64,000 nt of DNA from Kiritimatiellia bacterium. Lineage in GTDB: Bacteria; Verrucomicrobiota; Kiritimatiellia; RFP12; UBA1067. Below the pieces are notes generated by a model, which did not search any database, had not been told where the DNA came from, and saw only the letters and a program-made list of their open reading frames with translations. Position numbers and translations under genes: made by a program. This document shows, in pieces, positions 319-27,252 of this stretch. The stretch spans positions 6,277 through 70,276 of the forward strand of contig JAKSOW010000001.1 in NCBI GenBank assembly GCA_024405395.1. The letters are read 5' to 3'. Every line of letters begins with the position of its first letter. The first letter of the stretch is position 1.

Positions 319-332
319 ATTCCGGGACGACT

Positions 333-6048: not shown

Positions 6049-6078
6049 TGTCTTACATCCTTTTTCAATTTTACTAGC

Positions 6079-6612
6079 TTAATCAATGGAGAACTCGGAT
6101 GTCCCAAGTTTGCTGGAGGAAGCTGTACCATACCCCTCGCTGCCGTCAAACGTACCACTGATTTTGACCGTGTACTTTTTGAGCTTCATCTTGGTGACAC
6201 CCTTCTTGGTTTCATATTCCTGCACACCATAGACCTTGAAGGATCCCTTGACTGTTCCCTTCTTGCGGTTGTAGGAAAGCTTAAGACCGGCATAATTAGA
6301 GCTTTTGTCCGAATCCTTGAGCACCAACTCGTAATCCCCATCAACCTTTTTCACTTTGACAGAAAGGGCCTTATCGGTTTTCAACTTCTTGCCTGTGAAA
6401 TAGACAGGCTCGCCATCCGGGAAAAGATCAGACTGAATTTCGATTTCATCATCCGAAATATCAAATCCATCATCCAGTGTGAATGTGAATTCGGAATCCT
6501 CATAACTCTCATCATCTTTGTCCTTATTTTTGGCAAAAGCCGAAGAGATCGGCGCAAGCACCAATCCTAACGCCAAAACACCAATTGCTGTCTTTACCCA
6601 TTTCCTGTTCAT
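6079..6612 (-). CDS. small exported protein, unknown function (shares C-terminal module with the metalloprotease)
   Basis: An AGGAG sits 7 nt upstream of the ATG. The signal peptide is MNRKWVKTAIGVLALGLVLAPISSAFA, followed by an acidic stretch. Its GLKLSYNRKKGTVKGSFKVYGVQ...KMKLKKYTVKISGTFDGSEGYG aligns with GVKLSFAAKTGIFKGTFTIYAL...TKLAKYKFTVNGLVVDGVGRG of the 333..2015 product. Confidence 0.75.
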   Translation of the reverse strand: MNRKWVKTAIGVLALGLVLAPISSAFAKNKDKDDESYEDSEFTFTLDDGFDISDDEIEIQSDLFPDGEPVYFTGKKLKTDKALSVKVKKVDGDYELVLKDSDKSSNYAGLKLSYNRKKGTVKGSFKVYGVQEYETKKGVTKMKLKKYTVKISGTFDGSEGYGTASSSKLGTSEFSID

Positions 6613-6639
6613 GATCAGTTCTCCTTTTTTTGTAAGAAA

Positions 6640-7719: not shown

Positions 7720-9551
7720 TAATTCCCTTCTTTCGTAACCAAATCTAACCAATTCGGTATGTAGAGTTCTGCCCCTGGAACCTGTTCAACCCAAGAAGGT
7801 GGCAAATCATAATCAGAAGACAACCGCCCTGCCAGACGACCAAGAATAACCCGCACCTCCATTTTCTTCTGTAAAGACTCATCTATTTTTTTCCATGAGA
7901 ATGGAGGAGAAAGGAAAATCAGTTTTTCAGGGATGCAGAGACCATGATCCTGACGGTTAAACGTTTCAAGGTATTCAGCACCTCTCCATCCAGCAAGTAC
8001 TAACGTTCGTGTCTTATCTGGCAAAGCCGAAAGTTTCCGCACGAACGCAATTGCTGGGGCATTAGTATGGGACTGGAAAAACTGTCGCATCTCCTTGCCT
8101 TGATAAATCTGATATCCGCCATCAAGAACTGCGTCATCGCCTACAATCCACACTTTGGGATCTTCTCCGTTAAGCAAAACGTGATCTGGGAATCCCTTTA
8201 TGGATACCAACTGTCTGCAATTCCTTCCCCATATACCTACCACTACAACGGCACCAAGAGAAATAACCACAGCCATACATACAGCCACCAAAATCACCCG
8301 CCGTCCAAAAGGTCTAAAATCTTTGAACCCAGAAACAAGTGAAAATATCGGCAACACCCAAAGAAGTGGCTCCTCCAACTCATGTGTGAAACAGGCTGAT
8401 ACACCAAAAGCCACAAAGACCGCAAACGGCAAAGATTTCTTGTCGCGAAACGCCCACACCGCAAACAGGAACATGAAAAACAGCCAAGCAAACACATAGC
8501 CAACACGCTCCATACAACCCATCTCTACAAGCCATGTCAAATGGCTATTCTGCAGCTCAGACACCGCCAACGGCGTATCAAAGGACTGATACCAGTCAAC
8601 ATAGGCACGACCCCCATTACCATAGCCCCAACCTGTGGGAGCATCCGCCATCATTCTCGGTACAGCAGCCCACATTGTTCGCCGATCGGTGCGGGGGTCT
8701 TGGGCAAGAAAACCGCTGGTAAACCTAGTTCCACCAAACTTAAATGCAATGCCACCAAGGGCAACCAGCAGCAACAACGCTACCAGAATTCTGCGGAACG
8801 AAAATAAATCCTTGAATTCCCTAAAATGTGGTACAATAAGGGAAACAATACCCAAAACGAATCCGAGAAGACATCCCCGCGACTGCGTAAGGAACAAGAA
8901 GACCAATGACGCCAAGAAAGGGATGACGGCAACCATCCCGAGAATTAACCGACGACCATGAAACAACACCAATGCCACGGATAGGAACATCACCGACAAC
9001 ATCATAAAGATGGCTGCCGTCTTGTTTGGATTGATGAATTCCCCAAAAGGAATCCGGAACCGACCTGATTCTTTCCAGATGTCTACAGAAGTGACATCAT
9101 CCAACATTCCTCTTTGTTTCTGCTCCCAAAGCTTAGGTATGGCTTCATCCGACTGTACAGGCTTGATGCGCTTAACAACCATCTGCTCCCGATCGAAGGT
9201 CATCTTGCGCAACGTTCCATTATAAAACTCAAATTCCGTCTGTCCCCCAGTAAAGTCATCACGCGTACGAACGGTTGTCCGCCCATATTCAGAATAACCT
9301 TCCCACGGATCTTGGGCGAGTAAACGGGAAGGATTCTCCCGATCACGATACAAATAGCGAACCGTTTGGTCGGGTTGGGTCAATCGGCAAACCTCATAAT
9401 TTATCGGGACGAAAGTGGATTCAACTACATTAGTACCCCATTTAGTTGGGTCAGTTCGAAACCCATAGTAGGCGAATGACACCCATGACTGCAACAGAAC
9501 TATTGCAATCATAAAAATACGACGAATTGACCATGACTTAAACATATTCAC
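7719..9551 (-). CDS. polytopic membrane protein, O-antigen-ligase/Wzy_C-like core with extra N- and C-terminal soluble domains
   Basis: The central region has about 10 hydrophobic helices. It includes FLTQSRGCLLGFVLGIVSL, which resembles the Wzy_C/WaaL signature region. A ~170-aa region separates the first hydrophobic segment from the core, and a ~190-aa soluble tail follows it. The start is GTG 9551 or ATG 9545, 2-8 nt after the upstream stop. Confidence 0.7.
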   Translation of the reverse strand: MNMFKSWSIRRIFMIAIVLLQSWVSFAYYGFRTDPTKWGTNVVESTFVPINYEVCRLTQPDQTVRYLYRDRENPSRLLAQDPWEGYSEYGRTTVRTRDDFTGGQTEFEFYNGTLRKMTFDREQMVVKRIKPVQSDEAIPKLWEQKQRGMLDDVTSVDIWKESGRFRIPFGEFINPNKTAAIFMMLSVMFLSVALVLFHGRRLILGMVAVIPFLASLVFLFLTQSRGCLLGFVLGIVSLIVPHFREFKDLFSFRRILVALLLLVALGGIAFKFGGTRFTSGFLAQDPRTDRRTMWAAVPRMMADAPTGWGYGNGGRAYVDWYQSFDTPLAVSELQNSHLTWLVEMGCMERVGYVFAWLFFMFLFAVWAFRDKKSLPFAVFVAFGVSACFTHELEEPLLWVLPIFSLVSGFKDFRPFGRRVILVAVCMAVVISLGAVVVVGIWGRNCRQLVSIKGFPDHVLLNGEDPKVWIVGDDAVLDGGYQIYQGKEMRQFFQSHTNAPAIAFVRKLSALPDKTRTLVLAGWRGAEYLETFNRQDHGLCIPEKLIFLSPPFSWKKIDESLQKKMEVRVILGRLAGRLSSDYDLPPSWVEQVPGAELYIPNWLDLVTKEGN

Positions 9552-9553
9552 GA

Positions 9554-10195
9554 TTATTCGTCATCCTCTTCTTCTTGATTTTCCTCAAGCCATTTCTGAG
9601 CGGTGGCAACATTTTTCCAATCATCACCCGTCACGTATTCATAAGCTTCTTTCGCCGCCGCACGCGCAACACCATTACTGCTGGCAATAAGATGAACGAT
9701 GATATCAATAGACAAAGTAGGACGCAGATCGTTCAGTTGAAATGAAATTGATTCCATAACTTCACGATCACGAACCAACATCATGGTCTCCTCAATGAGT
9801 ACACCCTTTTCATGTTCATCCTCAATATCATTAATTGCCGAATCCCATTGATCCTGTGCCTCTGATCTAACGTCTTCATCGCGGTCAAGCAAAAACGGCA
9901 TCAACGCCCGTACAGATTTTTTTCCAAACCAGCCAATGGATTCAACACAACGCAAGCGAACTACTGCATTTTTCGAATTCTTGAGCTTTTCTACATAAGA
10001 CAATGCCTCCTGAAAATCTTCCTTCTCTACAGCATTCTCAAGATCAGAAACCTGCTTCTCTTCGCTAACCGTACATTCTGATGTCTCTACAACATTCTTT
10101 TGCATTTCCTTATCGGGTTCAGACTTGCCGCAACCGCTAAGTAGACAAACAACAACAGCAATACCGACTATATTCTTCATTTCTATCACCTTCAT
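9554..10195 (-). CDS. HEAT/PBS-lyase-like repeat lipoprotein
   Basis: The ATG at 10195 overlaps the upstream TGA (ATGA). The N-terminus MKVIEMKNIVGIAVVVCLLSGCGK contains the lipobox LSGC. VRLRCVESIGWFGKKSVRALMPFLLDRDEDVRSEAQDQW is HEAT-like. The tail is acidic. It is a paralog of 11688..12614. Confidence 0.75.
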   Translation of the reverse strand: MKVIEMKNIVGIAVVVCLLSGCGKSEPDKEMQKNVVETSECTVSEEKQVSDLENAVEKEDFQEALSYVEKLKNSKNAVVRLRCVESIGWFGKKSVRALMPFLLDRDEDVRSEAQDQWDSAINDIEDEHEKGVLIEETMMLVRDREVMESISFQLNDLRPTLSIDIIVHLIASSNGVARAAAKEAYEYVTGDDWKNVATAQKWLEENQEEEDDE

Positions 10196-11685
10196 GGCAA
10201 TGAGGCCAGAACTGTAACGTTGCCTTGACCCTGAATTTTTATTGTTCCTGTGATTTTGCCAGAATTCAAATCCAGACTTAACAAACCGATGACCACATTT
10301 TTCCCAGATTTCCTGAAAACAGGCAACCAGGTCGTTACGCAATCGGTACTCTCAACCAACACACTCTTGGTATTGATGCGAAGTCTATTTGGAAACGTTC
10401 CCTTTATTGAAACTACACCTGTCTTCGCTGCCGCCTTCTTCATTACCAACTGTAGTTCTGTTTCATTTTCAAGGATAATCTTACGGTCCATAACATAAAG
10501 ACTCGCAGGAGACTTTGCTGTCCAAAGTGTATGAGAGAAACAAATTCTACGCGACACACCATCTGTAGATATGAAATTTCCTATCAGCTGCCCTTCGGAT
10601 GTAACAGCTAACAAAAATGAACATCCCACTCCCGTTCCTGAAATTTCCAATATACCATCCGATGACAAACTTTTCCACCCTTTAGAAACCGCCTTCAACT
10701 TGTTATCGACACCATCATACTGGATTTTTGCCTGTCCTTTCTCCGAGAGTGTTAAGGATATTATTCCTTGCATCTCGCCATCCTCTGACAATATAAATCC
10801 ACTTGTCTTCACCGACTTTGTGATCGTGAAGGCAGAACAGACTTTAGAAACTGGAACCACAGTAATCGTTAGGGTAAATGTCTGACTGCCCTTCTCTATT
10901 CCTACATCGCGTTTTTCAGCCAGAATCCAAGAACTGGTAAACGTACCTGCTTTAGTTGGATTTCCTTTAAACAAAACCCGTTTAGAGACAGAATCATAGG
11001 ATACCTTTATTCCCGAAGGGAGTCTTCCAGAAGCCTTCTTTACCTGCACCATCCCACCTACCGTATTGGTTACTTGAAAGTATTCCTCAAAAGGAATATG
11101 CTGAACTGACTCAACAGTTGCATTCCGAAGCGCAAACGCCGGCATTGGCTGATCCATAGGTGCCGATGGTCTAGGAGAATCTAAAGTAGAGGAAAATGCA
11201 AAGCCCGAATCAACCAAAACCTTCTCAACTGAACTAGTCAACTGCAACGCTAGGGGCCCAAGTTTCACCGGCATGTATCCATCGCGACCAACAAAAGCTC
11301 TCTCAATTATCGTTCCATCTGTTTTTGGCCAATAGATGCAAAACAACGGCAACTCATTAATCCACGGATTAATAGATCGTATGAATTTAAGTCCTGCTTT
11401 TGCATCTGAATCGCCATCATGACATACGCTCATTATTATGCGGTGGTCATAAAGCCATTCCTGAAAATCAGCACTATCTAGTGCTGACTTCATCTGATTG
11501 CACATTGGACATGAGCTACGTGCCCACAATAACAACATAGGAGTGCATGTCTCGTTAGCATAGCTAAGACCCTTGGAAAACCCCGCATTCCACTCACCTA
11601 AACATATCTCTCCCCTAGAAAAAGAAAAAGCCCATACACTGAAAACTAGAATGATATTAAAAGACAGTACCAAAATTTTTTTCAT
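10192..11685 (-). CDS. exported thioredoxin-fold (CxxC) + Ig-like domain protein
   Basis: The signal peptide is MKKILVLSFNIILVFSVWAFS. The CxxC context is MLLLWARSSCPMCNQMKSAL. ELPLFCIYWPKTDGTIIERAFVGRDGYMP is conserved with the paralogs. The Ig-like segment is GRLPSGIKVSYDSVSKRVLFKGNPTKAGTF. The start lies 2 nt after the upstream TAG. Confidence 0.8.
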   Translation of the reverse strand: MKKILVLSFNIILVFSVWAFSFSRGEICLGEWNAGFSKGLSYANETCTPMLLLWARSSCPMCNQMKSALDSADFQEWLYDHRIIMSVCHDGDSDAKAGLKFIRSINPWINELPLFCIYWPKTDGTIIERAFVGRDGYMPVKLGPLALQLTSSVEKVLVDSGFAFSSTLDSPRPSAPMDQPMPAFALRNATVESVQHIPFEEYFQVTNTVGGMVQVKKASGRLPSGIKVSYDSVSKRVLFKGNPTKAGTFTSSWILAEKRDVGIEKGSQTFTLTITVVPVSKVCSAFTITKSVKTSGFILSEDGEMQGIISLTLSEKGQAKIQYDGVDNKLKAVSKGWKSLSSDGILEISGTGVGCSFLLAVTSEGQLIGNFISTDGVSRRICFSHTLWTAKSPASLYVMDRKIILENETELQLVMKKAAAKTGVVSIKGTFPNRLRINTKSVLVESTDCVTTWLPVFRKSGKNVVIGLLSLDLNSGKITGTIKIQGQGNVTVLASLP

Positions 11686-11687
11686 TG

Positions 11688-12614
11688 CTACTCTCCTTCA
11701 GAATTTTGCCCTTCTTCTTTTGAAATCGTTTTATCAAAATTTTTTCTCTCTGGTATATCGTACTCTGTGTCGTTTATGATTTTCATACCAGAAATATCTA
11801 TTTCTGGGTCAAATACCTCTGGGTGAAGAGATGCTCGATAGACTGGTATGTCATCAGATTCTTCTGACAAATCAATGTTCTCATTGACCCAGGCTTGTGC
11901 AGCCTCAAACGTCGTATACTCCTCCCCTGTTAGAAAAGAATAAGACTCAAGTGCTACATCCACAACATCTGGATTCTCACTATTAATCAAGGCTACCACT
12001 GACTCAATCGCCGTAAAAGTTGATAGTTCATTCAAATTAAAAGCGATATCTTCCAACATATCACGGTCTTTAATCACACCCATTGTAGCTTCAATAATTG
12101 TAGCCTTAACACGCTCATCTTCGACTTGACCTAAAGCAGATAACCAAAGATCTTGTGCAGCATCACGAACATTTTCATCCTGATCAACAAGAAAAGGCGT
12201 CAACTCAGGAAGGGCTTCCTCATTAAACCAACCAAGTGCCTCAATGGCTCTAAGGCGAACAATCTCATTTGTGGAATTTCCCATTAGTTTTGCAAGTTCT
12301 TGAACTGTAGTGAAATCCTCGGCATTAAGAGCTTTATCAACTTCATCAAACAACCGTCGATCCTGTGGCGAAACCTCATCAGGAATTTGAGATCGATCAA
12401 CTTTTCGTTTTTCCCGCCTTAATGTATTAACTTTAATGCTCGTATCCCTTATCTCAACTAGTTGCTTAACATTTGCCGGTTTGCGCCTTGATATACGCAT
12501 TCCAGTTCCAGATCTATTAGTTTGCCCCTCAGTCTCTTTATTGGTTGAAATATTGAAAATGAAAATGGCTATCGTGAATAAAATTACTGAAACTAAAAAA
12601 ATCTTAATTTTCAT
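11688..12614 (-). CDS. HEAT/PBS-lyase-like repeat protein with N-terminal membrane anchor
   Basis: The ATG at 12614 lies 1 nt after the upstream TAA. The N-terminus is MKIKIFLVSVILFTIAIFIFNIS. VRLRAIEALGWFNEEALPELTPFLVDQDENVRDAAQDLW aligns closely with the 9554 gene product. The tail is acidic. Confidence 0.75.
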   Translation of the reverse strand: MKIKIFLVSVILFTIAIFIFNISTNKETEGQTNRSGTGMRISRRKPANVKQLVEIRDTSIKVNTLRREKRKVDRSQIPDEVSPQDRRLFDEVDKALNAEDFTTVQELAKLMGNSTNEIVRLRAIEALGWFNEEALPELTPFLVDQDENVRDAAQDLWLSALGQVEDERVKATIIEATMGVIKDRDMLEDIAFNLNELSTFTAIESVVALINSENPDVVDVALESYSFLTGEEYTTFEAAQAWVNENIDLSEESDDIPVYRASLHPEVFDPEIDISGMKIINDTEYDIPERKNFDKTISKEEGQNSEGE

Positions 12615-12615
12615 T

Positions 12616-13692
12616 TTACTTCTTCCTTTTACGCGTTGGGAAAACGATACCTTCTCCATAAGGATATTTGATAATCGCTTTCTTACGCAAATCGCGAATA
12701 GTATTCCCGATAACCTCTTCCTGTCGTTCCTTAATCAATTCACGTTTTATGAATTCAGGATCCTCGTCAAATATTATGGCTGTTCGCCAAACAATGCGGG
12801 CAAGATGGCGAGCAAATACTGTTCCATCACCATTCACATCTTCTTTATCGCCCAAAAATTTTACTATCTCTATCCCATCATCGGTTGTCATAACATCTGT
12901 AATCTCACCAGGCTTTAAACATACTATGCTCTCCCAATAAACTGGGGCTTCCATTGAGAAGTCATCAGCCGTGCAAAAACCCAAGTCACCTCCTGGATTT
13001 TTTTCTTCATCCTGTGAAAAATCATCAGCCAGCTCAGAGAAATCTGCACCAGCCCTTGCCCTTGCCAAAACGTTAGTTGCTTCTGCATAAATGTGAATAT
13101 TTGTCTGCACCATACGCGCATTGTATGCAATCGTTTGCGCCACTTGATTTGAAATTGCTTCGGCAGATACCAGCATTTGAGTTGCCAATGCCGTCTTAAT
13201 GTAGTGCTGGCTCCATAAATCCAGCTCTAGCATCTCTTCAATCACATGACAATTAACACCTTTATCAAAGGAACAAAGTTGTTTGAAAGACATTCCTTTT
13301 TTACCATAGCTTAACGCATATTTTTCCTGAAGCTTCAACCTTTCTTCTTTTGTTGGCACAAAATTCATCCGTTTTGCTTCACTTGCCAACAATGCCATCG
13401 GAAAAAAGTTTTGATATTCTTTCTCCCGAAACCGCGTCTTTAGCATTTGAAACTTATGATCTGCTATAGTACCGACTTTCGCTTTGGCAAAACTCAATTT
13501 TGCCATAATTTGACCCTCATATTGTCCCTTGGTCAACTTTATACCATTGACTTCTACAAGCACCGAGTCAGAGTTGAGGCTACTATATGTTTCTCTCGTG
13601 CCTTTCGCACCATAAACATTGTTTATCCCGAAAGTAAGAAACAACAAAACTATACGAACAATTTTAAATGGAGTATAAGTTTTCATTTCCAC
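12616..13692 (-). CDS. exported SurA-N/parvulin-type peptidyl-prolyl cis-trans isomerase
   Basis: The N-terminus is signal-like (IVRIVLLFLTFGINNVYG). The PpiC/parvulin signature region is GGDLGFCTADDF...LKPGEITDVMTTDDGIEIVKFLG. The preceding helical region resembles the SurA/PrsA N-terminal chaperone part. Confidence 0.8.
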   Translation of the reverse strand: MEMKTYTPFKIVRIVLLFLTFGINNVYGAKGTRETYSSLNSDSVLVEVNGIKLTKGQYEGQIMAKLSFAKAKVGTIADHKFQMLKTRFREKEYQNFFPMALLASEAKRMNFVPTKEERLKLQEKYALSYGKKGMSFKQLCSFDKGVNCHVIEEMLELDLWSQHYIKTALATQMLVSAEAISNQVAQTIAYNARMVQTNIHIYAEATNVLARARAGADFSELADDFSQDEEKNPGGDLGFCTADDFSMEAPVYWESIVCLKPGEITDVMTTDDGIEIVKFLGDKEDVNGDGTVFARHLARIVWRTAIIFDEDPEFIKRELIKERQEEVIGNTIRDLRKKAIIKYPYGEGIVFPTRKRKK

Positions 13693-13705
13693 TGCTATCT
13701 CAAAT

Positions 13706-13744
13706 GTAAAAAGCGGGAGGAAGCACTTTCATGCATCCACCCGC
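13706..13744 (-). terminator. candidate rho-independent terminator after the 13779 gene
   Basis: On the minus strand, GCGGGTGGA pairs with TCCTCCCGC (one T:T mismatch) and is followed by TTTTT. A second perfect hairpin, TTATTCGCC-GAAG-GGCGAATAA, lies at 13757..13778 directly after the stop. Confidence 0.45.
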
Positions 13745-13778
13745 CTTGTCTCAATTATTCGCCCTTCGGCGAATAACC

Positions 13779-14657
13779 TTACTTAGCATACGCAGGCATA
13801 TAGGCAGCAACACCCTTAGTACCATTGGCAATCTTCTTGCTGTACTTCAGCTTCCACGTACCATACGCAGCAAGCAGTTCAGAACCAGCAGATTCGGTAA
13901 GATCGTCACAAACCGCACCGAAATCATCGCAGATACCAACAAGACCAGCCCAGTGATAGTCACACTCACGAATGGTAGGATCACCCGTCACCGAACCGGC
14001 AACACTACCAGAAACGTTCTTGACAACACCCTTCTTGACATCAAACGAACCAAGACCAGCGAGCTTAAGGTCGTAATCACTGAAATCAGCCGTTTCAGCA
14101 TTAAAACCACCTGCCCCATCCGAGACATTACGCCAAGCATAGTCAATCCAACCCATGTCACCATTCTCATCCTTGGCGTACACCTGCTCCTTACCAGCGA
14201 AGTCCCAGACCATGGAAACCTTGTTGGCCTTCTTCTCGTAACGATAAACCTCATCGCCAACAGCCGACTTGAAGTCATTAGCCTTGTATTTCTCAACAGT
14301 CTTACCGCCTTCGACAACAGTCTCCGTAGTGAGGTAATCACCAATCACGTGCTGGAAGCCCTTATCGGTACGCCAAATCACGTACTGGGCACCATCAAAA
14401 TCGCAAGCCGACTTGCAGTTCCAAATGATACCCTTCAGCGTACGCTTACCATTCTTGTAGTAGGAGACACACGTTTTCGTCTCACCCAAGCACGCACTAC
14501 CACCCTTGCACTTAAGGGTCTTGGGAGCGAGCGTCTTAAGCTTGATCGTAAGATCATAAGCCTGACAATCCGAACTCGGATCAATCGTGCAGAGGTCACC
14601 TGCAAAAACACCAATACCAGCAGCTGCAACAGCGGCAGCAATCATCAACTTCTTCAT
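13779..14657 (-). CDS. exported Cys-rich protein, unknown family (paralog of 5266..6048)
   Basis: The best start is the ATG at 14657 (MKKLMIAAAVAAAGIGVFAG, a signal peptide), preceded by an A-rich/GGA region. It shares motifs with the 5266 gene (see that entry). The overlapping plus-strand ORF 13731..14732 is judged an antisense artefact. Confidence 0.75.
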   Translation of the reverse strand: MKKLMIAAAVAAAGIGVFAGDLCTIDPSSDCQAYDLTIKLKTLAPKTLKCKGGSACLGETKTCVSYYKNGKRTLKGIIWNCKSACDFDGAQYVIWRTDKGFQHVIGDYLTTETVVEGGKTVEKYKANDFKSAVGDEVYRYEKKANKVSMVWDFAGKEQVYAKDENGDMGWIDYAWRNVSDGAGGFNAETADFSDYDLKLAGLGSFDVKKGVVKNVSGSVAGSVTGDPTIRECDYHWAGLVGICDDFGAVCDDLTESAGSELLAAYGTWKLKYSKKIANGTKGVAAYMPAYAK

Positions 14658-14899
14658 TTTTTTTCCTTTTTTAACCGGGTAGAATCCCGTGCCTTTACGA
14701 CGGTCGATCGTTTCCCAGATGAAAACCGCTGAGATATTCGGCCGGGCCACACTAGTATACCCGTACTTTTTTACAGGAGCTACCCTGATCTCTCACGCTT
14801 CGGGGCTGCATTCAGTAGCCCAGCACGTAACAATCTTTCGACCATTACTCCTAGGGTACTGGACTAATCCAGCCACCCTTCCACGGGAGAAACGCGCAT

Positions 14900-14928
14900 A
14901 TCATATCAAAAGTCGTTTTGCCTTGCAA
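14900..14928 (-). promoter_or_regulatory. candidate sigma70-type promoter (TTGCAA-17 nt-TATGAT) for the 13779 gene
   Basis: On the minus strand, TTGCAA is at 14928..14923 and TATGAT at 14905..14900, with a 17-nt spacer. This implies a 5' leader of about 235 nt before the ATG at 14657. Confidence 0.4.
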
Positions 14929-15046
14929 GTGGGAAATCAATTTTTTTTTCATTTTCTTTGTCACAACGCCACCAGGTGGATTTGCCTTGTAAGACTATTT
15001 AATGAGCGCACCATACACAATGCAAATGCAAAACTCTCTTGTTCAT

Positions 15047-15119: not shown

Positions 15120-15209
15120 TTACTTGTTTTTGTGGCGCTGCGCCTTCATGCGCTTGTCGTATTTGTGCTTCGACATTTTTTTCCGCCGTTTTTTCTTGAT
15201 CGAACCCAT
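15120..15209 (-). CDS. 29-aa highly basic micro-protein resembling ribosomal protein bS22 (AURKAIP1/COX24-like)
   Basis: It is below the ORF-track threshold. My translation is MGSIKKKRRKKMSKHKYDKRMKAQRHKNK. AGGAGA sits 6 nt upstream of the ATG. The MGS[IV]xKKRRxxMxKxKH pattern matches my recollection of bS22-type proteins. Confidence 0.6.
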   Translation of the reverse strand: MGSIKKKRRKKMSKHKYDKRMKAQRHKNK

Positions 15210-15279
15210 TTTGTTCTCCTTGGTTGAGGGTTTAAAGCAACTGAGGCCCCTTAGCCCAGATGCCTATTGGCCCGTTGCT

Positions 15280-16247: not shown

Positions 16248-16829
16248 TCAAAGAGCCTGCAGCGAACGAAGCTCCGCCATTTCCGCACGACGTGCGCGTG
16301 CCCAAGCCGCCACATCGACTTCGGGCGGCAATGTGGGCGTCACATAAGGCATGCCGCATGTTGCGCAGCAGGCACCTTTGTTCAGCGGAGCACCACAAGA
16401 GGGACATCTCGTCTCAAGCACTTCGCCACAAATGGCGCACCGCTTGGCACCCACGAATGGCGCAGCCATGCCGGCAATCGGGCGGAGAAAAAGACGCCCC
16501 TCCAGCACATAGGGTGCATTCGAAAGGCAATGTGCGGACGGACAAAAGCCAATCAGCGCATCCGCAGGCAAAACCATGGAAGGCAAGGCGGGCATTGCAT
16601 TCTGGACTGCATCAGCCACTTTCTTGGCCGCGGGTTCCAAAGACACGCCCACTTTCTCGGCAAACTTCTTGATTACCTCTTCCGAGAGTTTTGTACCGTC
16701 TCCAGCTTCGAACATTGAAATGGCCGGCTGTTTGCAGCCAAGTTCACGCGCCAACGCGGACTGGGAAATACCCTGTTCGCGGCGTGCCTGGCCGATGCTG
16801 CGGCAAATCTCTGGAGAAATGTTCTTCAC
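16248..16829 (-). CDS. XRE-family helix-turn-helix regulator with C-terminal Cys-rich (zinc-ribbon-like) region
   Basis: The HTH is GISQSALARELGCKQPAISMFEAG. The C-terminal half contains CxxC pairs (CAICGEVLETRCPSCG...CCATCG). Confidence 0.8.
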   Translation of the reverse strand: MKNISPEICRSIGQARREQGISQSALARELGCKQPAISMFEAGDGTKLSEEVIKKFAEKVGVSLEPAAKKVADAVQNAMPALPSMVLPADALIGFCPSAHCLSNAPYVLEGRLFLRPIAGMAAPFVGAKRCAICGEVLETRCPSCGAPLNKGACCATCGMPYVTPTLPPEVDVAAWARARRAEMAELRSLQAL

Positions 16830-16894: not shown

Positions 16895-17001
16895 TTATAA
16901 ACAGTTATAAACAGCCTTATAAACAATATGAGTTATAAACAACCTTTCATAACCATGTTTATAACCTACTTATAAACAACTGTTTATAACCTTGTGTATA
17001 A
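16895..17001. repeat. array of eight TTATAAACA-type 9-mers (operator or DnaA-box-like cluster)
   Basis: Forward TTATAAACA lies at 16895, 16905, 16917, 16933 and 16970. Reverse TGTTTATAA lies at 16956 and 16981. A degenerate TGTGTATAA lies at 16993. The segment 16970..16989 is a perfect inverted pair separated by 2 nt. The array sits 65-170 nt upstream of the XRE gene start. Confidence 0.85.
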
Positions 17002-18479: not shown

Positions 18480-19574
18480 TCAGCTGATGCGCAGCGGCAT
18501 CATAACGTACAGGAACGGCACCGAACACTTGATCAATGCCGGCGAAGAGCCGTTCTTGAGCTCGATGTAGACTTCATCCTCGTCAATGGCCTTCAGCGGA
18601 TCCATCACAAACTGGGGATTGAAGACAATCTCGATCGTCTCGCCGTCATACTTGATCGGCACCGTATCACGGGCCGCACCCACATCGGCGGCGGCTGACG
18701 CCACGGTGAGGCGATTGGACTCAAACGTGAGACGCGTAGAATTGGACTCATCCATCGTCATGACGCTGACGCGGTCAAGGGCCTCCAGCAGAAGCTTGCG
18801 CTCCACGGTGACGCGCTCGGTGCAGCCGGTGGGGATGACCTGACGATAGTTGGGATAGACATCATCCAGAAGCTTCGAGTAGATCTGCGTGTCGCCCAGA
18901 TTGAAGGACACCTGCGAGCGTTCCACGGTGACGCGCACATCGCCATCGGACGAAAGCGAACGCTGAAGCTCGGAGACCACCTTCGTGGGGAGCACGATGT
19001 CCTTCTCCGCATCGGCGGGGAATTCGACCTCATGCTCGACCAAGGCCAAACGCCGCCCATCCGTGGCCACCATGGTGAGCTTCGCGTCCTTGAAGCTCAT
19101 CAGAACGCCCTTCAGGGTCTTGCGCGTATCGTCCTGCGAGGCCGCGTACGAGGTCTTGCGCAGCATTTCGCGAAGCGCCATCTGCTTGATGATGTAGGCA
19201 AACGTGCCGGAATCCTTGGGGAGCTGCGGGAAGTCGGCGACATTCATGCCGGCGATGTTGAACACGGCGGAACCCGCCGACACAACCGCCTTGTCCTCCG
19301 CATCGGTCTCGAGCTCAACGGGGCCTTCCGCCGCCTTGGCGATCGTGGCCGCCAAAAGCTTCACGGGGAGCGTGGTCGCGCCTTCAGCCAGCACTTCGCA
19401 GGGAACGACGCTGCGGATCGAAATGTCAAGATCCGTGGTGGTGAGGAAGAGCTGCTTGTCCTTCGCCTCGATCAGCACATTCTGGATGATCTGCAGTGTA
19501 CCCTTTGACACCACGATGTTCTGAACCTTCTTGAGGCCTTCCAGAAACTTGGAACGTATAATCCTGATTTTCAT
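18480..19574 (-). CDS. dnaN: DNA polymerase III beta sliding clamp
   Basis: The 364-aa product starts MKIRIIRSKFLEGLKKVQNIV...LFLTTTDLDISI, a typical DnaN N-terminus. The gene lies immediately downstream of dnaA. Confidence 0.95.
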   Translation of the reverse strand: MKIRIIRSKFLEGLKKVQNIVVSKGTLQIIQNVLIEAKDKQLFLTTTDLDISIRSVVPCEVLAEGATTLPVKLLAATIAKAAEGPVELETDAEDKAVVSAGSAVFNIAGMNVADFPQLPKDSGTFAYIIKQMALREMLRKTSYAASQDDTRKTLKGVLMSFKDAKLTMVATDGRRLALVEHEVEFPADAEKDIVLPTKVVSELQRSLSSDGDVRVTVERSQVSFNLGDTQIYSKLLDDVYPNYRQVIPTGCTERVTVERKLLLEALDRVSVMTMDESNSTRLTFESNRLTVASAAADVGAARDTVPIKYDGETIEIVFNPQFVMDPLKAIDEDEVYIELKNGSSPALIKCSVPFLYVMMPLRIS

Positions 19575-19860
19575 TGCATGCTCCTGACACCATTTCGCCG
19601 GACAGTCCCGCTGTCAGCGATTCCTAAGATTGTACCTAATATTCCTTCTAAAGTAAAGAATGAATAATACTAATATTAGGTTGTTCAATAACTCCAATAA
19701 CTTCTTCAAGTACTGTAAAATCAAGGCCTGCGTGACTTTTCAGCTGTTCATTTCCCATTCAGTCGGATGTTCAGCGCTGTTGATGATTCGGCGGGCTTTA
19801 GACAACTGTCCACAAGTGGATGGGTTCTGCACAACTTCTCTACAGGGGATGAACAGATTA
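19575..19860. promoter_or_regulatory. dnaA-dnaN intergenic region with AT-rich tract and DnaA-box-like palindrome (possible oriC part)
   Basis: This 286-nt gap has an AT-rich run at about 19621-19725. CTGTCCACA (19806..19814) matches 7 of 9 positions of TTATCCACA. It abuts AGTGGAT to form TCCAC-AA-GTGGA. TGAACA/TGTTCA motifs are also present. Confidence 0.35.
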
Positions 19861-21297: not shown

Positions 21298-21435
21298 GAT
21301 CTTGTTGTCCTAGTGGACACTATTTAACCATATTTCCCGAACAAAACCACGCAAAAGAAATGAAAAGAAATGAACAAGTTGTGAACAGATACCTGTTCAT
21401 AGCTTAATGCAGGCTTTGCCTATCTGACTTGCGGA
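21298..21435 (-). promoter_or_regulatory. dnaA upstream region: extended -10-like TGGTTAAAT plus three TGAACA/TGTTCA sites
   Basis: The minus strand reads ...CTATGAACAGGTATCTGTTCACAACTTGTTCATTTC...ATATGGTTAAATAGTGTCCACTAGGACAACAAGATCATG. The TGn-extended -10 lies at 21322..21330. Confidence 0.35.
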
Positions 21436-23775: not shown

Positions 23776-23875
23776 CTATAATGCCTTTTGTTTATGAACC
23801 AATATTTTCCCAAAAAGACGTGATTTTGGCAACCCTTTTATTTGACGCATAACGCATCATGTTCTACGGATCATC

Positions 23876-25843
23876 TTAGTGATGTCCCCTTTTGATGATG
23901 ATGGCCAGAACCGAAATGTCGGCAGGATTGACGCCCGGAATGCGGCCCGCCTGTGCCAAAGTCTCCGGACGATACTTCTTCATCTTTTCCCGGCTCTCAT
24001 ACCTGATGGCCGGACACTTGTCGTAATCCAGCCAATGGGGAATCTTGATGTTCTCGTCGCGCTTGGCCCGTTCGGCGGCAATGTTCTCCTGGCGAATGTA
24101 GCCGGCGTAGTGGTGACGGATTTTCACCTGTTCAACCACAGGATCAGGAACCTGAATGGAAGAGCCGCCGATTTCGATCTCGGCGTTAGGGTTACCGTCA
24201 GGCTGAACAGACAATACGCGTTTCAGCTTTTTGTTGTCCTGCTCGATGGTGTTGATCATATCGGCAAACGATTTGGTTTCCTCCCGAATGACCTTCGGCA
24301 GAATGCCTACCCTTTCCGCTGCTTCCTGCAGGCGGTAGCGGGCATTGTCCTGACGCAGGATCAGGCGGCGCTCGGCACGTGATGTGAACATGCGATAAGG
24401 TTCATCGGTTCCCTTGGTGACCAAGTCATCGATCAATACGCCAATGTACGCATCCTGGCGGCTGATCACAAGCGGGCTTTCATGCTTGACCTTGAAGGCG
24501 GCATTTATTCCCGCCATGATGCCCTGGGCGGCAGCTTCCTCATAACCCGTTGTCCCGTTGATTTGGCCGGCAAAGAACAGACCGGATATACGCTTGGATT
24601 CCAGCGAATGCGTCAGCTCACGGGCGTCAATTCCATCATACTCAATGGCGTAGGCATACGCAAGGAATTCGGCGTGCTCCAGACCTGGAACGGAATGGAC
24701 CAGTTCTTCCTGAACCTGACGAGGAAGAGAGTTGGATAGACCATTAGGATAGATGATCTGCCCTGCACGATCTTCGGGTTCAAGGATGACATGATGACCA
24801 TCAACACCCGCGAATCTGACTATCTTATCCTCAATCGATGGACAATACCTGACGCCCGTTCCACTTATCATTCCACCATAAAGAGATGAATCCTTAAGAT
24901 GCGAACGTATGATTTCATGGCTGATTGGCGTTGTATGGGTTGCCCAACAGATAGCTTTAGCGGAATTCAAAGGCCACGGAGCGAACAAATCCGCATTGTT
25001 CCACGTGGAACAGTCCGTTGAACTGGATTCTGATGCGGAATTGGCATTGTTCCACGTGGAACAAAGACCAGAAATGGGTTCAGATGAAGCTAAATCATGG
25101 TTGTTCCACGTGGAACAATTGATTCCGGGTGTTAAACCATGGGAAAGGAGGTATCTGGTTCTGAGGGAGAAATAAGGCGGATTATCCTCTCCTTCCTGCG
25201 GTGTACACACCGAAAAGTCGCAGCTTGATGCCTTTAAGCGTGGCGGTGTACCTGTTTTAAGCCGAATAAGCTGAAAACCGAGTTTGGAAAGCGAATCGGA
25301 TAGCTGATTGACGGCTGGCCGCCCATCTCCGCCAGATTCCGTGCATTCCTTGCCAATGAATATCCGCCCTCGCAAAGCCGTTCCGGAGGTTATCACCAAA
25401 GCCTCACAGTTGATCAGTCCGTTCTTCTCGGTTCTGATTCCGGTTACGGTGTCATGATTGGTTATCACCTCAAGGGCGGCATCCTCGATCACGGTCAGGT
25501 TTTTGGTGCTGTTGACAACCAACTGCATGCGCCGTGTGTATTCGCTCTTGTCGCATTGTGCTCGTGTTGCCTGCACGGCTGGACCACGGCTCAAGTTCAA
25601 TGTCTTTTCCTGGAGCGAAGTGAGGTCGGTGTTGAATCCCATTTCGCCGCCCAACGCATCCAACTCAAACACCAGATGACTTTTGGCAAGTCCGCCAATG
25701 GAAGGATTGCAGGGCATACGCGCAATGGCAGACTTGAGCCCCGTAACCAAAAGGGTGTCAATGCCCATGCGTGCAGCGGCCAATGCCGCTTCGGCTCCGG
25801 CATGGCCTCCACCAACCACAACAATTGAAAAATCTGTTTTCAT
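23876..25843 (-). CDS. mnmG: tRNA uridine-5-carboxymethylaminomethyl modification enzyme MnmG (GidA), with an internal repeat insertion
   Basis: The FAD motif is [19 protein letters not shown]. Other conserved stretches are [12 protein letters not shown] and [19 protein letters not shown]. The segment between PPYFSLR and ICWATHTT is about 68 aa long. Confidence 0.95.
24997..25117. repeat. three perfect copies of the 16-nt palindrome TGTTCCACGTGGAACA inside mnmG
   Basis: Copies lie at 24997..25012, 25048..25063 and 25102..25117, with spacings of 51 and 54 nt (in frame). Each encodes CSTWNN in the mnmG frame. The sequences between the copies are unrelated to each other. Confidence 0.9.
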
Positions 25844-25933
25844 TGCAGATATTATAACATGCTTTAAGACAAAATATAAGAGATAACAGATAAAAGATAA
25901 ACGAGGGCCTCTGCTTTTCTCGATGAAATCTTT

Positions 25934-26174
25934 AAGACAGGATTTACAAGATTAACAGGATTTAGAAGCCTGACCGATTGAGATAATTAATGTGGCGATT
26001 GCAAGTCGTGGTCGGTGGGTTCATTGAAACCAGTCCTGTCTGTTTAATAGGCGTAGGTTCAGGTAGGACAACATTGACGATGCCGCCGCTAATGAGATAT
26101 TGCAGTATCCTCAATAAATAAAGCAACATCGGGGAAATCCTGTTAATCCTGTTAATCCTGTCGGAAATCAGGAT
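25934..26174. repeat. inverted clusters of ACAGGATT(T/A) / (A/T)AATCCTGT 9-mers flanking ~165 nt
   Basis: ACAGGATTT lies at 25937 and 25955. Three contiguous copies, AAATCCTGT-TAATCCTGT-TAATCCTGT, span 26135..26161. AAATCAGGAT follows at 26165. The arms GACAGGATTTACAAGATTAACAGGATTT and GACAGGATTAACAGGATTAACAGGATTT (reverse complement of the right arm) are near-identical. Confidence 0.7.
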
Positions 26175-27191
26175 CTGCTCTGTCAGTCCAGTTCTCAGTT
26201 AGTTTCCGTTAAGATTTTGACTGAAAAGCCCGCCAGTAGAATTCATCAGTCAAAAACCTGAATCGCCTAAGCAATCAAGGAAAGGGGCTGGAAAAATCCC
26301 GGAATCATGAGCGTCATATTCACCTCGACAAAGGAGTGCGTGATTTGAGAATTGAGGGCTAAAAGGCGAATGTGTCTTGTCCAATCATATCGAAAACATC
26401 GCGATTGAATTGTCCGGAAGGGTTCATTCTCAATCGTTTTCCGTGGCCGCCAGATGGCGGTTTCCGTGTCCTTCCATGGTCTTCTACCTGGCGAAACAAC
26501 ATTATTCAACATATCAAATAACTTCTGGCTTTTTGGGAAAATGCAGATGCATTTGCCATACTGGAGATCCTCTCGTTCCGCTAAAACTTCAATGATCAAA
26601 TGATCCGATGAGATTCACTATCAACAGTTATTCACATTTATGAAACGAGCGATTATGCGACAAACAGAAGAGGCCCAAGTACGGGAAACCTTGATTTTAC
26701 GGGCTTTTATGCTTGTGCCGAAAAAGTCAACAGAAAGATATGCAAAATACTGTCATAATTATGAACTACTTATGAACAGGTTTTAGGCAACGGTTCAGAA
26801 CTATTGACAGGTGATTTCTGCAATGTAATTCACATTATCGGCCCATAAGCATGGAAGGGCCGAATGTTATGACGGAAACGGAAAGGAAACCCCTTATGAT
26901 CTGGGGTGTGGTCGTCAAAACGGAACTCACCGTAGAGCATCATCCCCTGCGGCAAGGCTCAGTACCTGAAGCATGGGGATTTGGTATCAGAAGCAGGAAT
27001 TCGTAGTATCTGAGTCAAATGAAACGGTATCTGAGATGAATTCCATTGTCTGGGTAGGATTGCAGTACATGTTCCATGACTGTTTCATTTGGAATGTCGG
27101 AAAAGGGGCTGAAAGCGTCTCATCTCAGAGTGTAATGCGTTATGCGTCAAATTGGCGGCAACGGAGCAGTTGCGAATACAACAAATTAAAA

Positions 27192-27221
27192 TTGTATACA
27201 TATTAAAGGATATGCTATACT
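27192..27221 (+). promoter_or_regulatory. candidate promoter TTGTAT-18 nt-TGcTATACT for the beta-helix gene
   Basis: The extended -10, TGCTATACT, lies at 27213..27221 within an AT-rich tract. An AGGAGG RBS lies at 27241, and the ATG is at 27253. Confidence 0.4.
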
Positions 27222-27252
27222 TTAAGCATCGTCAACCGCAAGGAGGAAAGAA

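Follow-up and report, generated by a model that had tools for sequence, protein, structure and literature searches.

The mnmG-upstream spacer near the origin of a Kiritimatiellae chromosome bears DnaA-box-like sites and is probably regulatory rather than the site of origin opening

The low-GC spacer upstream of mnmG at 25844-27252 is probably an origin-proximal regulatory region of that gene which bears DnaA-box-like sites, and not the site at which the chromosome opens. Unwinding would most likely take place in the spacer between dnaA and dnaN, some 6 kb further left. The window, by which we mean the whole 64-kb stretch of DNA analysed, does hold the chromosomal origin neighbourhood of a Kiritimatiellae chromosome, since it combines dnaA and dnaN, parS sites in mnmG, a skew minimum at about 24 kb and a conserved spacer upstream of mnmG. 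The initial annotation had put the mnmG spacer forward as a candidate oriC. Its location by skew and strand switch, the proximity of dnaA, dnaN and parS, and a conserved box module all fit that proposal, but the number of boxes over the whole region does not exceed chance, a module of box and DnaA-trios is missing, and the predicted unwinding elements lie outside it. The features discussed are collected in Table 1.

Table 1. Features of the mnmG spacer and of its surroundings in the window.
Feature	Position	Strand	Basis or remark
XRE-HTH/zinc-ribbon gene	16248-16829	-	directly downstream of box cluster
Seven perfect TTATAAACA boxes and one TTATACACA	16895..17001	.	upstream of HTH gene
dnaN	18480-19574		present in window
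dnaA-dnaN spacer, best oriC candidate	19575..19860	-	least stable 60-mer and conserved layout
Candidate basal unwinding module	19656..19700	-	box pair, gap, trios
dnaA	19861-21297		present in window
Box pair and triplet CTATGAACA-N6-TGTTCACAA-ct-TGTTCATTT	21368..21402	-	upstream of dnaA
mnmG	23876-25843	-	Pfam GIDA, E = 1.4e-139
Three exact parS-type palindromes TGTTCCACGTGGAACA	24997..25117	.	within in-frame mnmG insertion, outside spacer
Spacer between mnmG (-) and DUF1565-type gene (+)	25844..27252	.	non-coding, low-GC
Putative mnmG promoter, extended -10 TGtTATAAT	25851..25859	-	predicted from sequence and comparison with relatives
Three tandem 7-nt units AGATAAC AGATAAA AGATAAA	25881..25901	+	read from sequence
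Foldback left arm, 9-nt ACAGGATTA-type repeats	25931..25963	.	33 nt, 88% complementary
Foldback right arm, AATCCTGTT x3	26135..26167	.	171 nt from left arm
Hairpin element TTTCCGTG-GCCGCCA-GA-TGGCGG-TTTCCGTG	26425..26482	.	blastn
Box-like 9-mers CTATCAACA (26618), TTATTCACA (26628)	26618..26636	+	
Conserved mnmG-upstream module	26652..26788	-	nhmmer profile, E = 1e-4; alignment
Box-like 9-mers TTATGAACT (26759), TTATGAACA (26770)	26759..26778	+	
Box-like 9-mer TAATTCACA	26826..26834	+	
Perfect 18-nt inverted repeat arm ATGCGTTATGCGTCAAAT	27135..27152	.	partner 23840-23857
AT-rich tract, probable promoter of the 27253 gene	27175..27234	+	predicted
Secreted DUF1565-type protein gene	start 27253	+	neighbour of spacer, divergent from mnmG

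By its position the spacer resembles an origin. Family-supported genes at 1-25843 all lie on the minus strand and those from 27253 onward all on the plus strand, with the single exception of a RecQ-like ORF (62927-63970), which confirms that the gene-orientation switch falls exactly at the spacer. The adjoining gene is a true mnmG, as had been assumed. Over the 64-kb window the cumulative G-C minimum is found at 24.0 kb, near the spacer, but the valley around it hardly changes in depth between 18 and 26 kb, and in the window and eight relatives alike three candidate sites are not separable, the valley being flat across mnmG-rlmL. Within these 64 kb the spacer thus lies by skew and strand switch near dnaA, dnaN and mnmG, with dnaA-dnaN 4.5-7 kb to its left. 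Many relatives have the order mnmG-(Na+/H+ exchanger)-dnaA-dnaN-rlmL-[boxes]-HTH in common with the window, and relatives are found in which mnmG is directly followed by dnaA-dnaN; the orientation of mnmG relative to dnaA varies among them.

At 0.42, the GC content of the spacer is below that of the window (0.57) and of the DNA to the right of the spacer (about 0.6). In agreement with the first description, the spacer contains no convincing ORF. All ORFs within it are at most 110 aa; six of them gave no Pfam match even at E <= 1, and the longest (110 aa) has no homologue among 5.8 billion proteins. Rfam searches at gathering and permissive thresholds returned no family, only chance-level matches to eukaryotic miRNA and snoRNA, and scans of the spacer for tRNA, tmRNA and terminators found none. 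The number of promoter-like sequences in the spacer does not exceed that in shuffles.

Across the clade a low-GC spacer upstream of mnmG is conserved: most of the related Kiritimatiellae contigs examined have one. It spans 235-1400 nt in the relatives, with one exception of 35 nt (L003), and is flanked by a divergent gene on its far side in 14 of 23 loci; in four (L002, L007, L008, L112) it sits directly between divergent dnaA and mnmG. Because the relatives are too diverged for DNA alignment beyond short blocks, the closest mnmG proteins being about 60-70% identical, we used profile searches. An nhmmer profile built only from the mnmG-upstream DNA of 10 relatives, with the window left out, has its sole significant match in the 64 kb at 26788-26652 (E = 1e-4), a match that covers the distal two-thirds of the module only. 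The alignment with relatives called for at the outset thus bears out both a recurring long low-GC gap and a retained module. Within the module lie boxes of the form TGTTCATAA-N4-TTCATAA, a TTGAC element and a conserved 10-mer, TGTCGCATAA. We considered and dropped a functional pairing of TGTCGCATAA with its reverse complement in the 3′ part of the relatives' mnmG, because the coding copy is explicable by a conserved LMRQ peptide.

The box-like 9-mers named in the initial annotation all lie where they were placed (26628, 26759, 26770 and 26826), and we add a fifth, CTATCAACA, at 26618. Five relaxed boxes in 1.4 kb compare with 3.1 expected from Markov simulations (sd 1.85), and 23% of the simulations reach at least five, so that the count for the whole region does not rise above composition; a scan for the canonical TTATCCACA box likewise revealed no enrichment in the spacer. 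All five nevertheless share one strand and crowd into 217 nt (26618-26834). Two of them lie inside the conserved module and the other three flank it, and TTATGAACT and TTATGAACA align with a TGTTGATAA box that at least 10 relatives carry about 175-195 nt ahead of mnmG. In the relatives the module directly abuts mnmG, with the boxes about 20 to 195 nt upstream of the gene and overlapping a TTCACA-17-TATAAT promoter: a TGTTNATAA box at about 175-195 nt (at least 10 relatives) is followed by TGTTCACAA..GTTGATAAT, which overlaps the TATAAT promoter. A purely promoter reading of TGTTCACAA/TTGACA, as hexamers, was dropped; the promoter and box readings are not exclusive, because the relatives' copies overlap both the promoter and box-like sites. 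As such, DnaA-box-like sites precede a predicted promoter upstream of gidA/mnmG, the arrangement of an oriCII-like region.

In the window the module lies 810-945 nt upstream of mnmG, separated from the mnmG promoter by about 750 bp (roughly 25900-26650, foldback arrays included) that is absent at the equivalent position in relatives and is best read as lineage-specific, repeat-rich DNA added to the spacer. Here the foldback arms fold as a hairpin (z = -3.8), and an array similar to the left arm occurs in L112 (12491-12520). The hairpin element has two similar intergenic copies in the relative L027 (7479-7535 and 9326-9363; blastn, 79-82% identity), and the partner of the 18-nt repeat lies just downstream of mnmG, so that the repeat brackets mnmG and the spacer. 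Such heptad foldback arrays are species-specific, concentrated around mnmG, and shift in position between species. The reading proposed below assigns a role neither to about 320 nt of the spacer (26860-27180) nor to the foldback arrays.

The alternative raised at the outset, that the region is inserted DNA, is correct insofar as about 750 bp is extra relative to the relatives. One could go further and regard most of the spacer as functionless decayed foreign or selfish DNA, such as MITE-like foldback repeats or what is left of an inserted element; we consider this improbable. The low GC, the 750 nt missing from relatives, the species-to-species variation of arrays that shift around mnmG, the short hairpin element copied in another genome, and the bracketing 18-nt repeat together with the variable mnmG/dnaA orientation are all consistent with it. 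Against it, the spacer holds no remnant of a transposase, integrase or other gene and does not resemble known mobile DNA; blastn found no match among plasmids and phages; and tblastn of all ORFs of at least 30 aa against 160 related loci found only the short repeat shared with L027. A pseudogene remnant finds no support in the same Pfam, protein and tblastn searches, which show no trace of a decayed gene. Moreover, part of the spacer is demonstrably conserved, and low GC is common to the equivalent spacers of relatives.

For the regulatory reading we propose a spacer of four parts. Adjoining mnmG would be its promoter, whose extended -10 lies 7 nt upstream of the ATG, with TATAAT at the equivalent place in relatives; an mRNA from this putative start would be near-leaderless. 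The second part would be the clade-conserved module of TTATNAACA/TTNTTCACA type, within the wider set of 9-mers at 26618-26834, and between the two would lie the roughly 750 bp of lineage-specific repeats with the 9-nt-repeat foldback. The promoter of the divergent neighbour would occupy the far end. The AT-rich tract there (27180-27225), first listed as an origin element, is indeed unstable DNA, 27175-27234 ranking in the bottom five of the window's 60-mers for stability, but it resembles the neighbour's promoter: TATACT at about 27216-27221 precedes an AAGGAGG ribosome-binding site, and the tract probably serves the gene at 27253 as its promoter. DnaA would bind the box module and thereby regulate transcription into mnmG, and the module may also buffer DnaA near the origin. 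Direct control of the proximal mnmG promoter is doubtful, because the box-like 9-mers lie 770-990 nt from the mnmG start.

For the opening site itself, the basal unwinding system of Richardson, Pelliciari and Murray provides the comparison: by its published definition, a DnaA box that deviates from the species motif at no more than 2 positions, either single or one of a co-oriented tandem pair, lies 0-16 nt from three or more NAN trios of the complementary strand, and these typically begin with 3′-GAT-5′ (PMC8287927). All of these sequence elements are found at 19656-19700 on the minus strand, where TTATTGGAG and TTATTGAACA are followed by a 2-nt gap (AC) and CTA ATA TTA GTA TTA TTC ATT CTT. 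Opening would thus proceed from a co-oriented box pair through 2 nt and eight trios, of which the first, CTA, would read 3′-GAT-5′ on the bound strand, into the least stable DNA; no 60-mer in the 64 kb is less stable than 19619-19678. In a scan for such systems the best intergenic match falls at 19690 (-), with 8 trios and CTA first; two higher-scoring matches fall inside genes, the (NTN)n definition of trios being permissive in AT-rich DNA. The layout of box pair, CCTA..., AT-rich DNA and TATTTGATACAAT is present in 17 relatives, and a profile of their dnaA-dnaN spacers matches the window with E = 1.3e-10. At least three trios occur in 16 of 18 dnaA-dnaN spacers, with CTA first in 12 of the 18. 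In L004 the trios remain upstream of dnaN despite an altered gene order. The layout could in part reflect a DnaA-regulated dnaN promoter.

The boxes at 21368..21402 correspond to a TTATNAACA-N5-TGTTNATAA pair that precedes dnaA in relatives. The TTATNAACA-type box is supported as the local DnaA box because relatives and window alike carry it as an inverted pair ahead of dnaA, and because it recurs in the dnaA-dnaN spacer; the published Akkermansia box is TTATTAACA. In the mnmG spacer, the same scan for unwinding systems gave only weak matches, with boxes of 2 mismatches and at most 4 trios, and no trio run that starts with CTA; 25844-27252 does not combine an AT-rich unwinding element with a box and DnaA-trios.

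Some observations favour the mnmG spacer over our placement of the opening. The strand switch coincides with it and the skew minimum is nearer to it than to 19.7 kb. Were the origin at 19.7 kb, the rightward fork would meet 6 kb of genes (dnaA, the exchanger gene and mnmG) head-on. The spacer could be the chromosomal origin itself or one lobe of a multipartite origin, which we judge unlikely. In the multipartite variant, DnaA at 26618-26834 would cooperate with the boxes upstream of dnaA and between dnaA and dnaN, after the models of H. pylori oriC1/oriC2 and B. subtilis incAB/incC; in the other, the spacer would open alone, as E. coli oriC does beside gidA. Beyond switch and skew (minimum within 2 kb), this reading is consistent with parS sites 0.7-0.85 kb away, the conservation of a low-GC spacer and box module upstream of mnmG, the AT-rich centre between the box groups of the relatives' module, the placement between divergent dnaA and mnmG in the four loci named above, and the fact that cloned Pseudomonas oriCII does replicate. 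The missing box-trio module and a box count that does not exceed chance for the whole region argue against it, as do a window module that is less AT-rich and split from mnmG by about 750 nt, the far better conserved canonical unwinding module at dnaA-dnaN, and the coincidence of the spacer's two least stable tracts with the two flanking promoters.

A further set of boxes, at 16.9 kb, is by far the densest cluster of the window, with seven perfect TTATAAACA copies at 16895-16989. That this cluster is the origin's main DnaA platform, which would make the mnmG spacer irrelevant, or else a datA-like titration site or an operator array of the HTH protein, has in our estimate only a slim chance. Seven perfect boxes and a near-perfect one are packed into 107 nt, with no other perfect copy in the 64 kb. 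Among all 60-mers of the window, the second least stable lies there. In at least 10 relatives the cluster immediately precedes the HTH gene, and it travels with that gene, inverted in L085 and relocated beside mnmG in L004. As an origin platform, however, it has no strand switch and no convincing trio array after the boxes, and its 283-nt gap must also accommodate the HTH promoter and the terminator of rlmL. That the cluster is so closely tied to the 5′ end of the HTH gene points instead to a part in regulation or titration.

The palindromes inside mnmG match the 16-bp parS consensus TGTTNCACGTGNAACA (PMC7383237), with several origin-proximal copies: three exact copies of TGTTCCACGTGGAACA compare with 0.21 expected. 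A parS-type palindrome occurs in 43 of 48 Kiritimatiellae-type mnmG loci, against 5 of 112 other loci. The copies in mnmG are translated in any of the three frames; the sites are maintained in coding sequence regardless of reading frame. Relative to known parS/ParB sites, TGTTCCACGTGGAACA equals the idealised TGTTTCAC-GTGAAACA except at one symmetric position, and the copies are likewise clustered and origin-proximal. They differ in that all window copies lie in the mnmG reading frame, within a variable in-frame insertion. No parB gene or ParB domain was found among the proteins scanned in the 64 kb.

Finally, the mnmG spacer might be a second functional origin-like element of oriCII type, or the lobe of a tripartite origin with the dnaA flanks and the TTATAAACA cluster, though we hold this to be quite unlikely. 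Inverted arrays of 7-9-nt repeats adjoin mnmG in most relatives, and in that event these fast-evolving arrays would be functional: they might serve a heptad-reading DNA-binding protein, or form cruciforms that act together with the parS array inside mnmG. The spacer itself is of moderate interest; the parS sites in coding sequence and the foldback heptad arrays may merit more attention.

A full-text literature search returned no description of origin architecture in Kiritimatiellae. The arrangement proposed here would therefore be a first origin map for the class, in which a B. subtilis-type module for unwinding would separate dnaA from dnaN, the local box would be a TTATNAACA variant, mnmG and the HTH gene would each be preceded by an accessory box cluster, and mnmG would harbour a parS array. 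The B. subtilis origin, which reads TTATCCACA-AATCCACA-GGCC-CTA CTA TTA CTT... (PMC8287927, Tables S1/S2), shares with the window the dnaA-dnaN tandem box pair, short gap, CTA-led trios and AT-rich DNA in matching order and orientation, boxes upstream of dnaA, and extra box clusters in nearby intergenic regions (here at 16.9 and 26.7 kb). In contrast, the Kiritimatiellae box consensus ends in AACA and not CACA, the gap consists of 2-4 nt of A/C instead of GGCC, and mnmG and the exchanger gene take the upstream place of rpmH. E. coli oriC is also an intergenic region beside and divergent from mnmG, with DnaA-box-like sites. Unlike it, the spacer lacks a DUE with an adjacent high-affinity box or trios and has a box density not above chance, and dnaA lies only 4.5 kb away with canonical origin elements in its flanks.

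For the spacer, the nearest precedents would be oriCII, the gidA promoter region of Pseudomonas, and the DnaA-box clusters near the B. subtilis origin. Pseudomonas oriCII resembles an origin but is not the one that the chromosome uses; it acts as a DnaA-regulated promoter region at gidA, with a proposed role in DnaA control of gidA-operon transcription (PMC13438810). Both regions carry box-like 9-mers upstream of gidA/mnmG near the true origin and a parS/ParB domain, and both would be origin-like sequences on a chromosome that initiates elsewhere. They differ in that mnmG is followed here by dnaA-dnaN and not by gidB-parAB, the putative boxes are of TTATNAACA type, and the module lies about 0.8 kb from mnmG because of the extra repeat DNA. 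A strand switch and a gene-free AT-rich gap beside mnmG are thus insufficient to call an oriC: as in Pseudomonas, the gidA side can resemble an origin without being the opening site.

The initial annotation placed a candidate oriC in the low-GC, non-coding stretch next to mnmG, where gene orientation switches. Our analysis bears out this description of the spacer (25844-27252), which lies between mnmG and a gene of DUF1565 type: its GC content is 0.42, where the whole window has 0.57 and the DNA to its right some 0.6-0.68, none of its ORFs exceeds 110 aa, and searches of it for Rfam families and tRNAs returned none. Six spacer ORFs gave no Pfam match at a threshold of E ≤ 1, the longest had no homologue in a collection of 5.8 billion proteins, and those of at least 30 aa matched nothing but one short repeat in 160 related loci. 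The supported genes to the left all lie on the minus strand and those to the right on the plus strand, with one exception near the end of the window, a RecQ-like ORF. On the reading that we favour, the spacer is probably origin-proximal mnmG-upstream DNA with a DnaA-box module, and the chromosome would open in the dnaA-dnaN spacer (19575-19860).

Features of the mnmG region and inverted arrays of related contigs (L numbers); coordinates are window positions unless a contig is named
Feature	Position	Strand	Remarks
Box cluster	16895-17001 (107 nt)		seven perfect TTATAAACA, one TTATACACA
dnaN	18480-19574	-	left of mnmG, same strand
dnaA	19861-21297	-	left of mnmG, same strand
Inverted box pair	21379-21402		CTATGAACA-N6-TGTTCACAA; upstream of dnaA
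Perfect 14-nt inverted repeat	23804-23817 and 26529-26542
Perfect 18-nt inverted repeat	23840-23857 and 27135-27152		first copy just downstream of mnmG
mnmG	23876-25843	-	Pfam GIDA, E = 1.4e-139; C-terminal helical bundle
parS-type palindrome TGTTCCACGTGGAACA	24997, 25048, 25102		three exact copies within mnmG; span 24997-25117
Three AGATAA(C/A) heptads	25881-25901
Foldback arms	25931-25963 and 26135-26167		ACAGGATTA-type 9-mers; 88% complementary; 171 nt apart
Hairpin element TTTCCGTG-GCCGCCA-NN-TGGCGG-TTTCCGTG	26425-26482		two L027 copies, ~80% identity
Hairpin-element copies, L027	7479-7535 and 9326-9363		both intergenic
Secreted DUF1565-type gene	start 27253	+	right-hand neighbour of spacer
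Inverted array, 7-9-nt units, window (the foldback)	25931-26167
Inverted array, L002	9240-9385
Inverted array, L087	9400-9740
Inverted array, L090	1140-1440
Inverted array, L091	1070-1800
Inverted array, L101	9600-9700
Inverted arrays, L112	9240-9380 and 11925-12880

The 9-mers reported in the initial annotation were each found at the position given. The canonical box TTATCCACA has a single 1-mismatch match in the spacer and no local excess, and a relaxed, clade-suited pattern (TTATNMACA, at most one mismatch) has five, all on the plus strand within 26618-26834; composition-matched simulations of 1.4 kb yield 3.1 ± 1.85 and reach five in 23% of cases. A list of boxes without comparison to relatives is weak evidence, and its value derives from conservation. 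Low-GC DNA of 235-1400 nt precedes mnmG in the relatives, with the exception of L003 (35 nt only), and a divergent gene lies past it in 14/23 loci. At least ten relatives share a layout in the final ~200 nt ahead of mnmG, consisting of TGTTGATAA-N4-TT(A/G)ATAA-..TGTTGACA, a TTGACA element, an AT/T-rich stretch, (T)GTCGCATAA, a T-run, and TGTTCACAA-N5-GTTGATAAT-..-TATAAT followed by the start codon; its final block can be taken for a putative TTCACA-17-TATAAT promoter, and two box-like 9-mers overlap it. A profile of ten relatives' sequences, with the window left out, matches the 64 kb at 26788-26652 (-) with E = 1e-4 and has no other significant match. Hence the TTATGAACT/TTATGAACA pair of the initial annotation corresponds to a box pair that the relatives conserve. 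The match runs from the first box to TGTCGCATAA, leaving the promoter-proximal third uncovered, and the module lies 810-945 nt from mnmG, which retains an extended -10 element for itself (TGtTATAAT, 25851-25859), 7 nt away from its ATG; the ~750 nt between this element and the module are lineage-specific. Through the conserved module, DnaA would control transcription into mnmG(-dnaA-dnaN), and/or the module would buffer DnaA near the origin.

The 10-mer TGTCGCATAA (26653-26662) is itself conserved upstream of mnmG in L084, L087, L088, L090, L091 and L101, at ~60-70 nt in five of them and ~360 nt in L084. Several relatives also have the reverse complement of this 10-mer towards the 3′ end of the mnmG coding sequence, and there it may just encode LMRQ; near-copies (TTATGCGTCA) lie at 27140 and 23845-23854.

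The rest of the spacer would be lineage-specific repeat DNA and two promoters. The AT-rich tract, proposed earlier as an origin element, is present (27175-27234), but is best read as the putative promoter of the 27253 gene, since TATACT and a strong ribosome-binding site come after it. The foldback segment has a folding energy of -34.9 kcal/mol as single-stranded DNA (z = -3.8). Comparable inverted arrays are found in relatives, built of tandem, species-specific 7-nt units (GGTAGAT, GAGTTGG, CAGGGGT, CGTAAAT and others; L112 likewise has an ACAGGATT array), located upstream of mnmG, in the mnmG-dnaA interval or downstream of mnmG, and in most relatives they cluster around this gene. Array length varies between close relatives (L002 and L112, L090 and L091), and the arrays behave like unstable repeats; they resemble either the heptad arrays that ribbon-helix-helix proteins recognise or satellites that form hairpins and are unstable. 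The hairpin element may be a small dispersed repeat. The 18-nt and 14-nt inverted repeats enclose mnmG and most of its upstream spacer; recombination between repeats of this kind could conceivably have inverted mnmG, because the gene is inverted, diverging from dnaA, in L002, L007, L008 and L112 as opposed to the rest. That most of the spacer is inserted or selfish DNA without function seems improbable, and for the ~750-nt insert this is partly compatible with our preferred reading. The inserted-element alternative of the initial annotation has partial support for the central ~750 nt; no gene was found in the spacer, and its sequence resembled none of the plasmid or phage records searched.

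Of all 60-mers in the window, the one with the lowest stability (19619-19678) falls within the dnaA-dnaN spacer. The end of this spacer, in dnaA sense, comprises a co-oriented tandem box pair (gTTATTGGAgTTATTGAACA), the 2-nt gap AC, eight trios (CTA ATA TTA GTA TTA TTC ATT CTT), and AT-rich DNA with TATTAGGTACAAT, followed by dnaN. This layout matches the published basal unwinding system, in which a co-oriented box pair and a short gap precede at least three trinucleotides whose middle base is A when read on the complementary strand; the first of them is usually 3′-GAT-5′ (PMC8287927). The orientation is that of B. subtilis, whose box-sense strand reads TTATCCACA-AATCCACA-GGCC-CTA CTA TTA CTT CTA CTA (converted from the tables of PMC8287927), and CTA CTA TTA CTT is also present in L002. 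When the whole window was scanned by the rules of this system with the local box, the best intergenic match was at 19690 (-), two higher scores fell inside genes, and 25844-27252 gave marginal matches only, under a trio rule that is permissive in AT-rich DNA. The layout is kept in 17/17 relatives with the spacer available (consensus GACTTATCnACATTGTCAACAAnCCTAATAnTA...ACTCTTTAT...TATTTGATACAAT), and a profile built without the window matches 19691-19604 with E = 1.3e-10. At least three trios are found in 16/18 dnaA-dnaN spacers, with CTA first in 12/18, and L004, which has another gene order, carries a CTA CTT CTA CTA CTT run ahead of dnaN. These features make the dnaA-dnaN spacer the best oriC candidate, although its layout could in part be a dnaN promoter.

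Upstream of dnaA, relatives have an inverted box pair, TTATNAACA-N5-TGTTNATAA, similarly placed to that of the window; such pairs typically accompany bipartite origins and dnaA genes under autoregulation. Boxes of the AACA type also occur outside the Kiritimatiellae clade, since the Akkermansia box is listed as TTATTAACA (PMC8287927). The box cluster at 16.9 kb holds every perfect TTATAAACA of the 64 kb, and we regard it as doubtful that it serves as the main platform: the unwinding-module scan found no convincing trio array in it, the 283-nt gap around it has to accommodate a terminator and a promoter as well, and in relatives it lies directly upstream of an XRE-HTH/zinc-ribbon gene, moving along with that gene. 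We read it as an accessory cluster of DnaA boxes or an operator array; it could also serve for titration.

The spacer 25844-27252 might itself be the origin or one lobe of it, a less likely reading that draws on the conserved DnaA-box module and the origin neighbourhood. The gene order mnmG-dnaA-dnaN-rlmL-...-HTH is common to Kiritimatiellae relatives, whose metagenome-assembled genomes supply the closest mnmG genes (52-70% protein identity); the window's own protein has a record from one NCBI assembly only, GCA_024500545.1. A Na+/H+ exchanger-EIIA gene sits between dnaA and mnmG. Against our preferred reading stand the positions of the strand switch and of the skew minimum, both closer to 25844-27252, and with an origin at 19.7 kb three genes would face the fork that moves rightwards head-on. 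The cumulative G-C curve of the 64-kb window reaches its minimum at 24.0 kb, in a nearly flat stretch with a change of only ~60 counts from 18 to 26 kb. The oriC interpretation of the initial annotation is partly borne out: it has the neighbourhood right, and a conserved DnaA-box module is present, but the unwinding signature sits in the dnaA-dnaN spacer.

GC skew is much stronger (about -0.2) in window 1-15000, where GC is much lower (0.39-0.53 compared with 0.6-0.68 in the rest). Proteins encoded there include thioredoxin-like, HEAT-repeat, O-antigen-ligase-like and PPIase types. Either composition varies along the window, or these 15 kb were acquired and adjoin the origin region. At 15124-15212 (-), a 29-aa, highly basic ORF matching Pfam COX24_C (E = 2e-8) probably encodes a small protein of ribosomal type and is easily overlooked in annotation.

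The parS-type palindromes inside mnmG (expected count at ≤ 2 mismatches, 0.21) deviate at a single symmetric position from the idealised parS, TGTTTCAC-GTGAAACA (PMC7383237). All copies fall in an insertion of MnmG that is in frame and variable, where the Pfam alignment is interrupted after residue 230; protein length ranges from 625 to 962 aa among relatives, and 17/19 of them (L001-L008, L027, L059, L084-L091, L112 examined) carry 1-5 copies in mnmG. The 14-nt core is read as CSTWN, FHVEH/Q or VPRGT, that is, in three frames, between species and sometimes within one gene, which points to selection on the DNA, not the peptide. Sites of this kind occur in 43/48 Kiritimatiellae-type mnmG loci versus 5/112 loci of other taxa, where they lie outside mnmG in all four of the five loci with a listed mnmG position. 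Thus mnmG looks like the carrier of a putative centromere array of the origin domain, inside a housekeeping ORF. L055, a contig labelled uncultured Clostridia bacterium, has five TGTTCCACGTGGAACA-type sites at 4981-5546, ~3 kb from mnmG and outside the gene; its bin label may be wrong, as these sites represent the Kiritimatiellae parS variant.

ParB loaded on the mnmG array would be expected to spread across the spacer 25844-27252. Pseudomonas oriCII comes closest to this spacer as a precedent: this DnaA-box region at gidA is origin-like and replicates once cloned, yet is not the chromosomal origin and works as a DnaA-regulated gidAB-parAB promoter region (PMC13438810).
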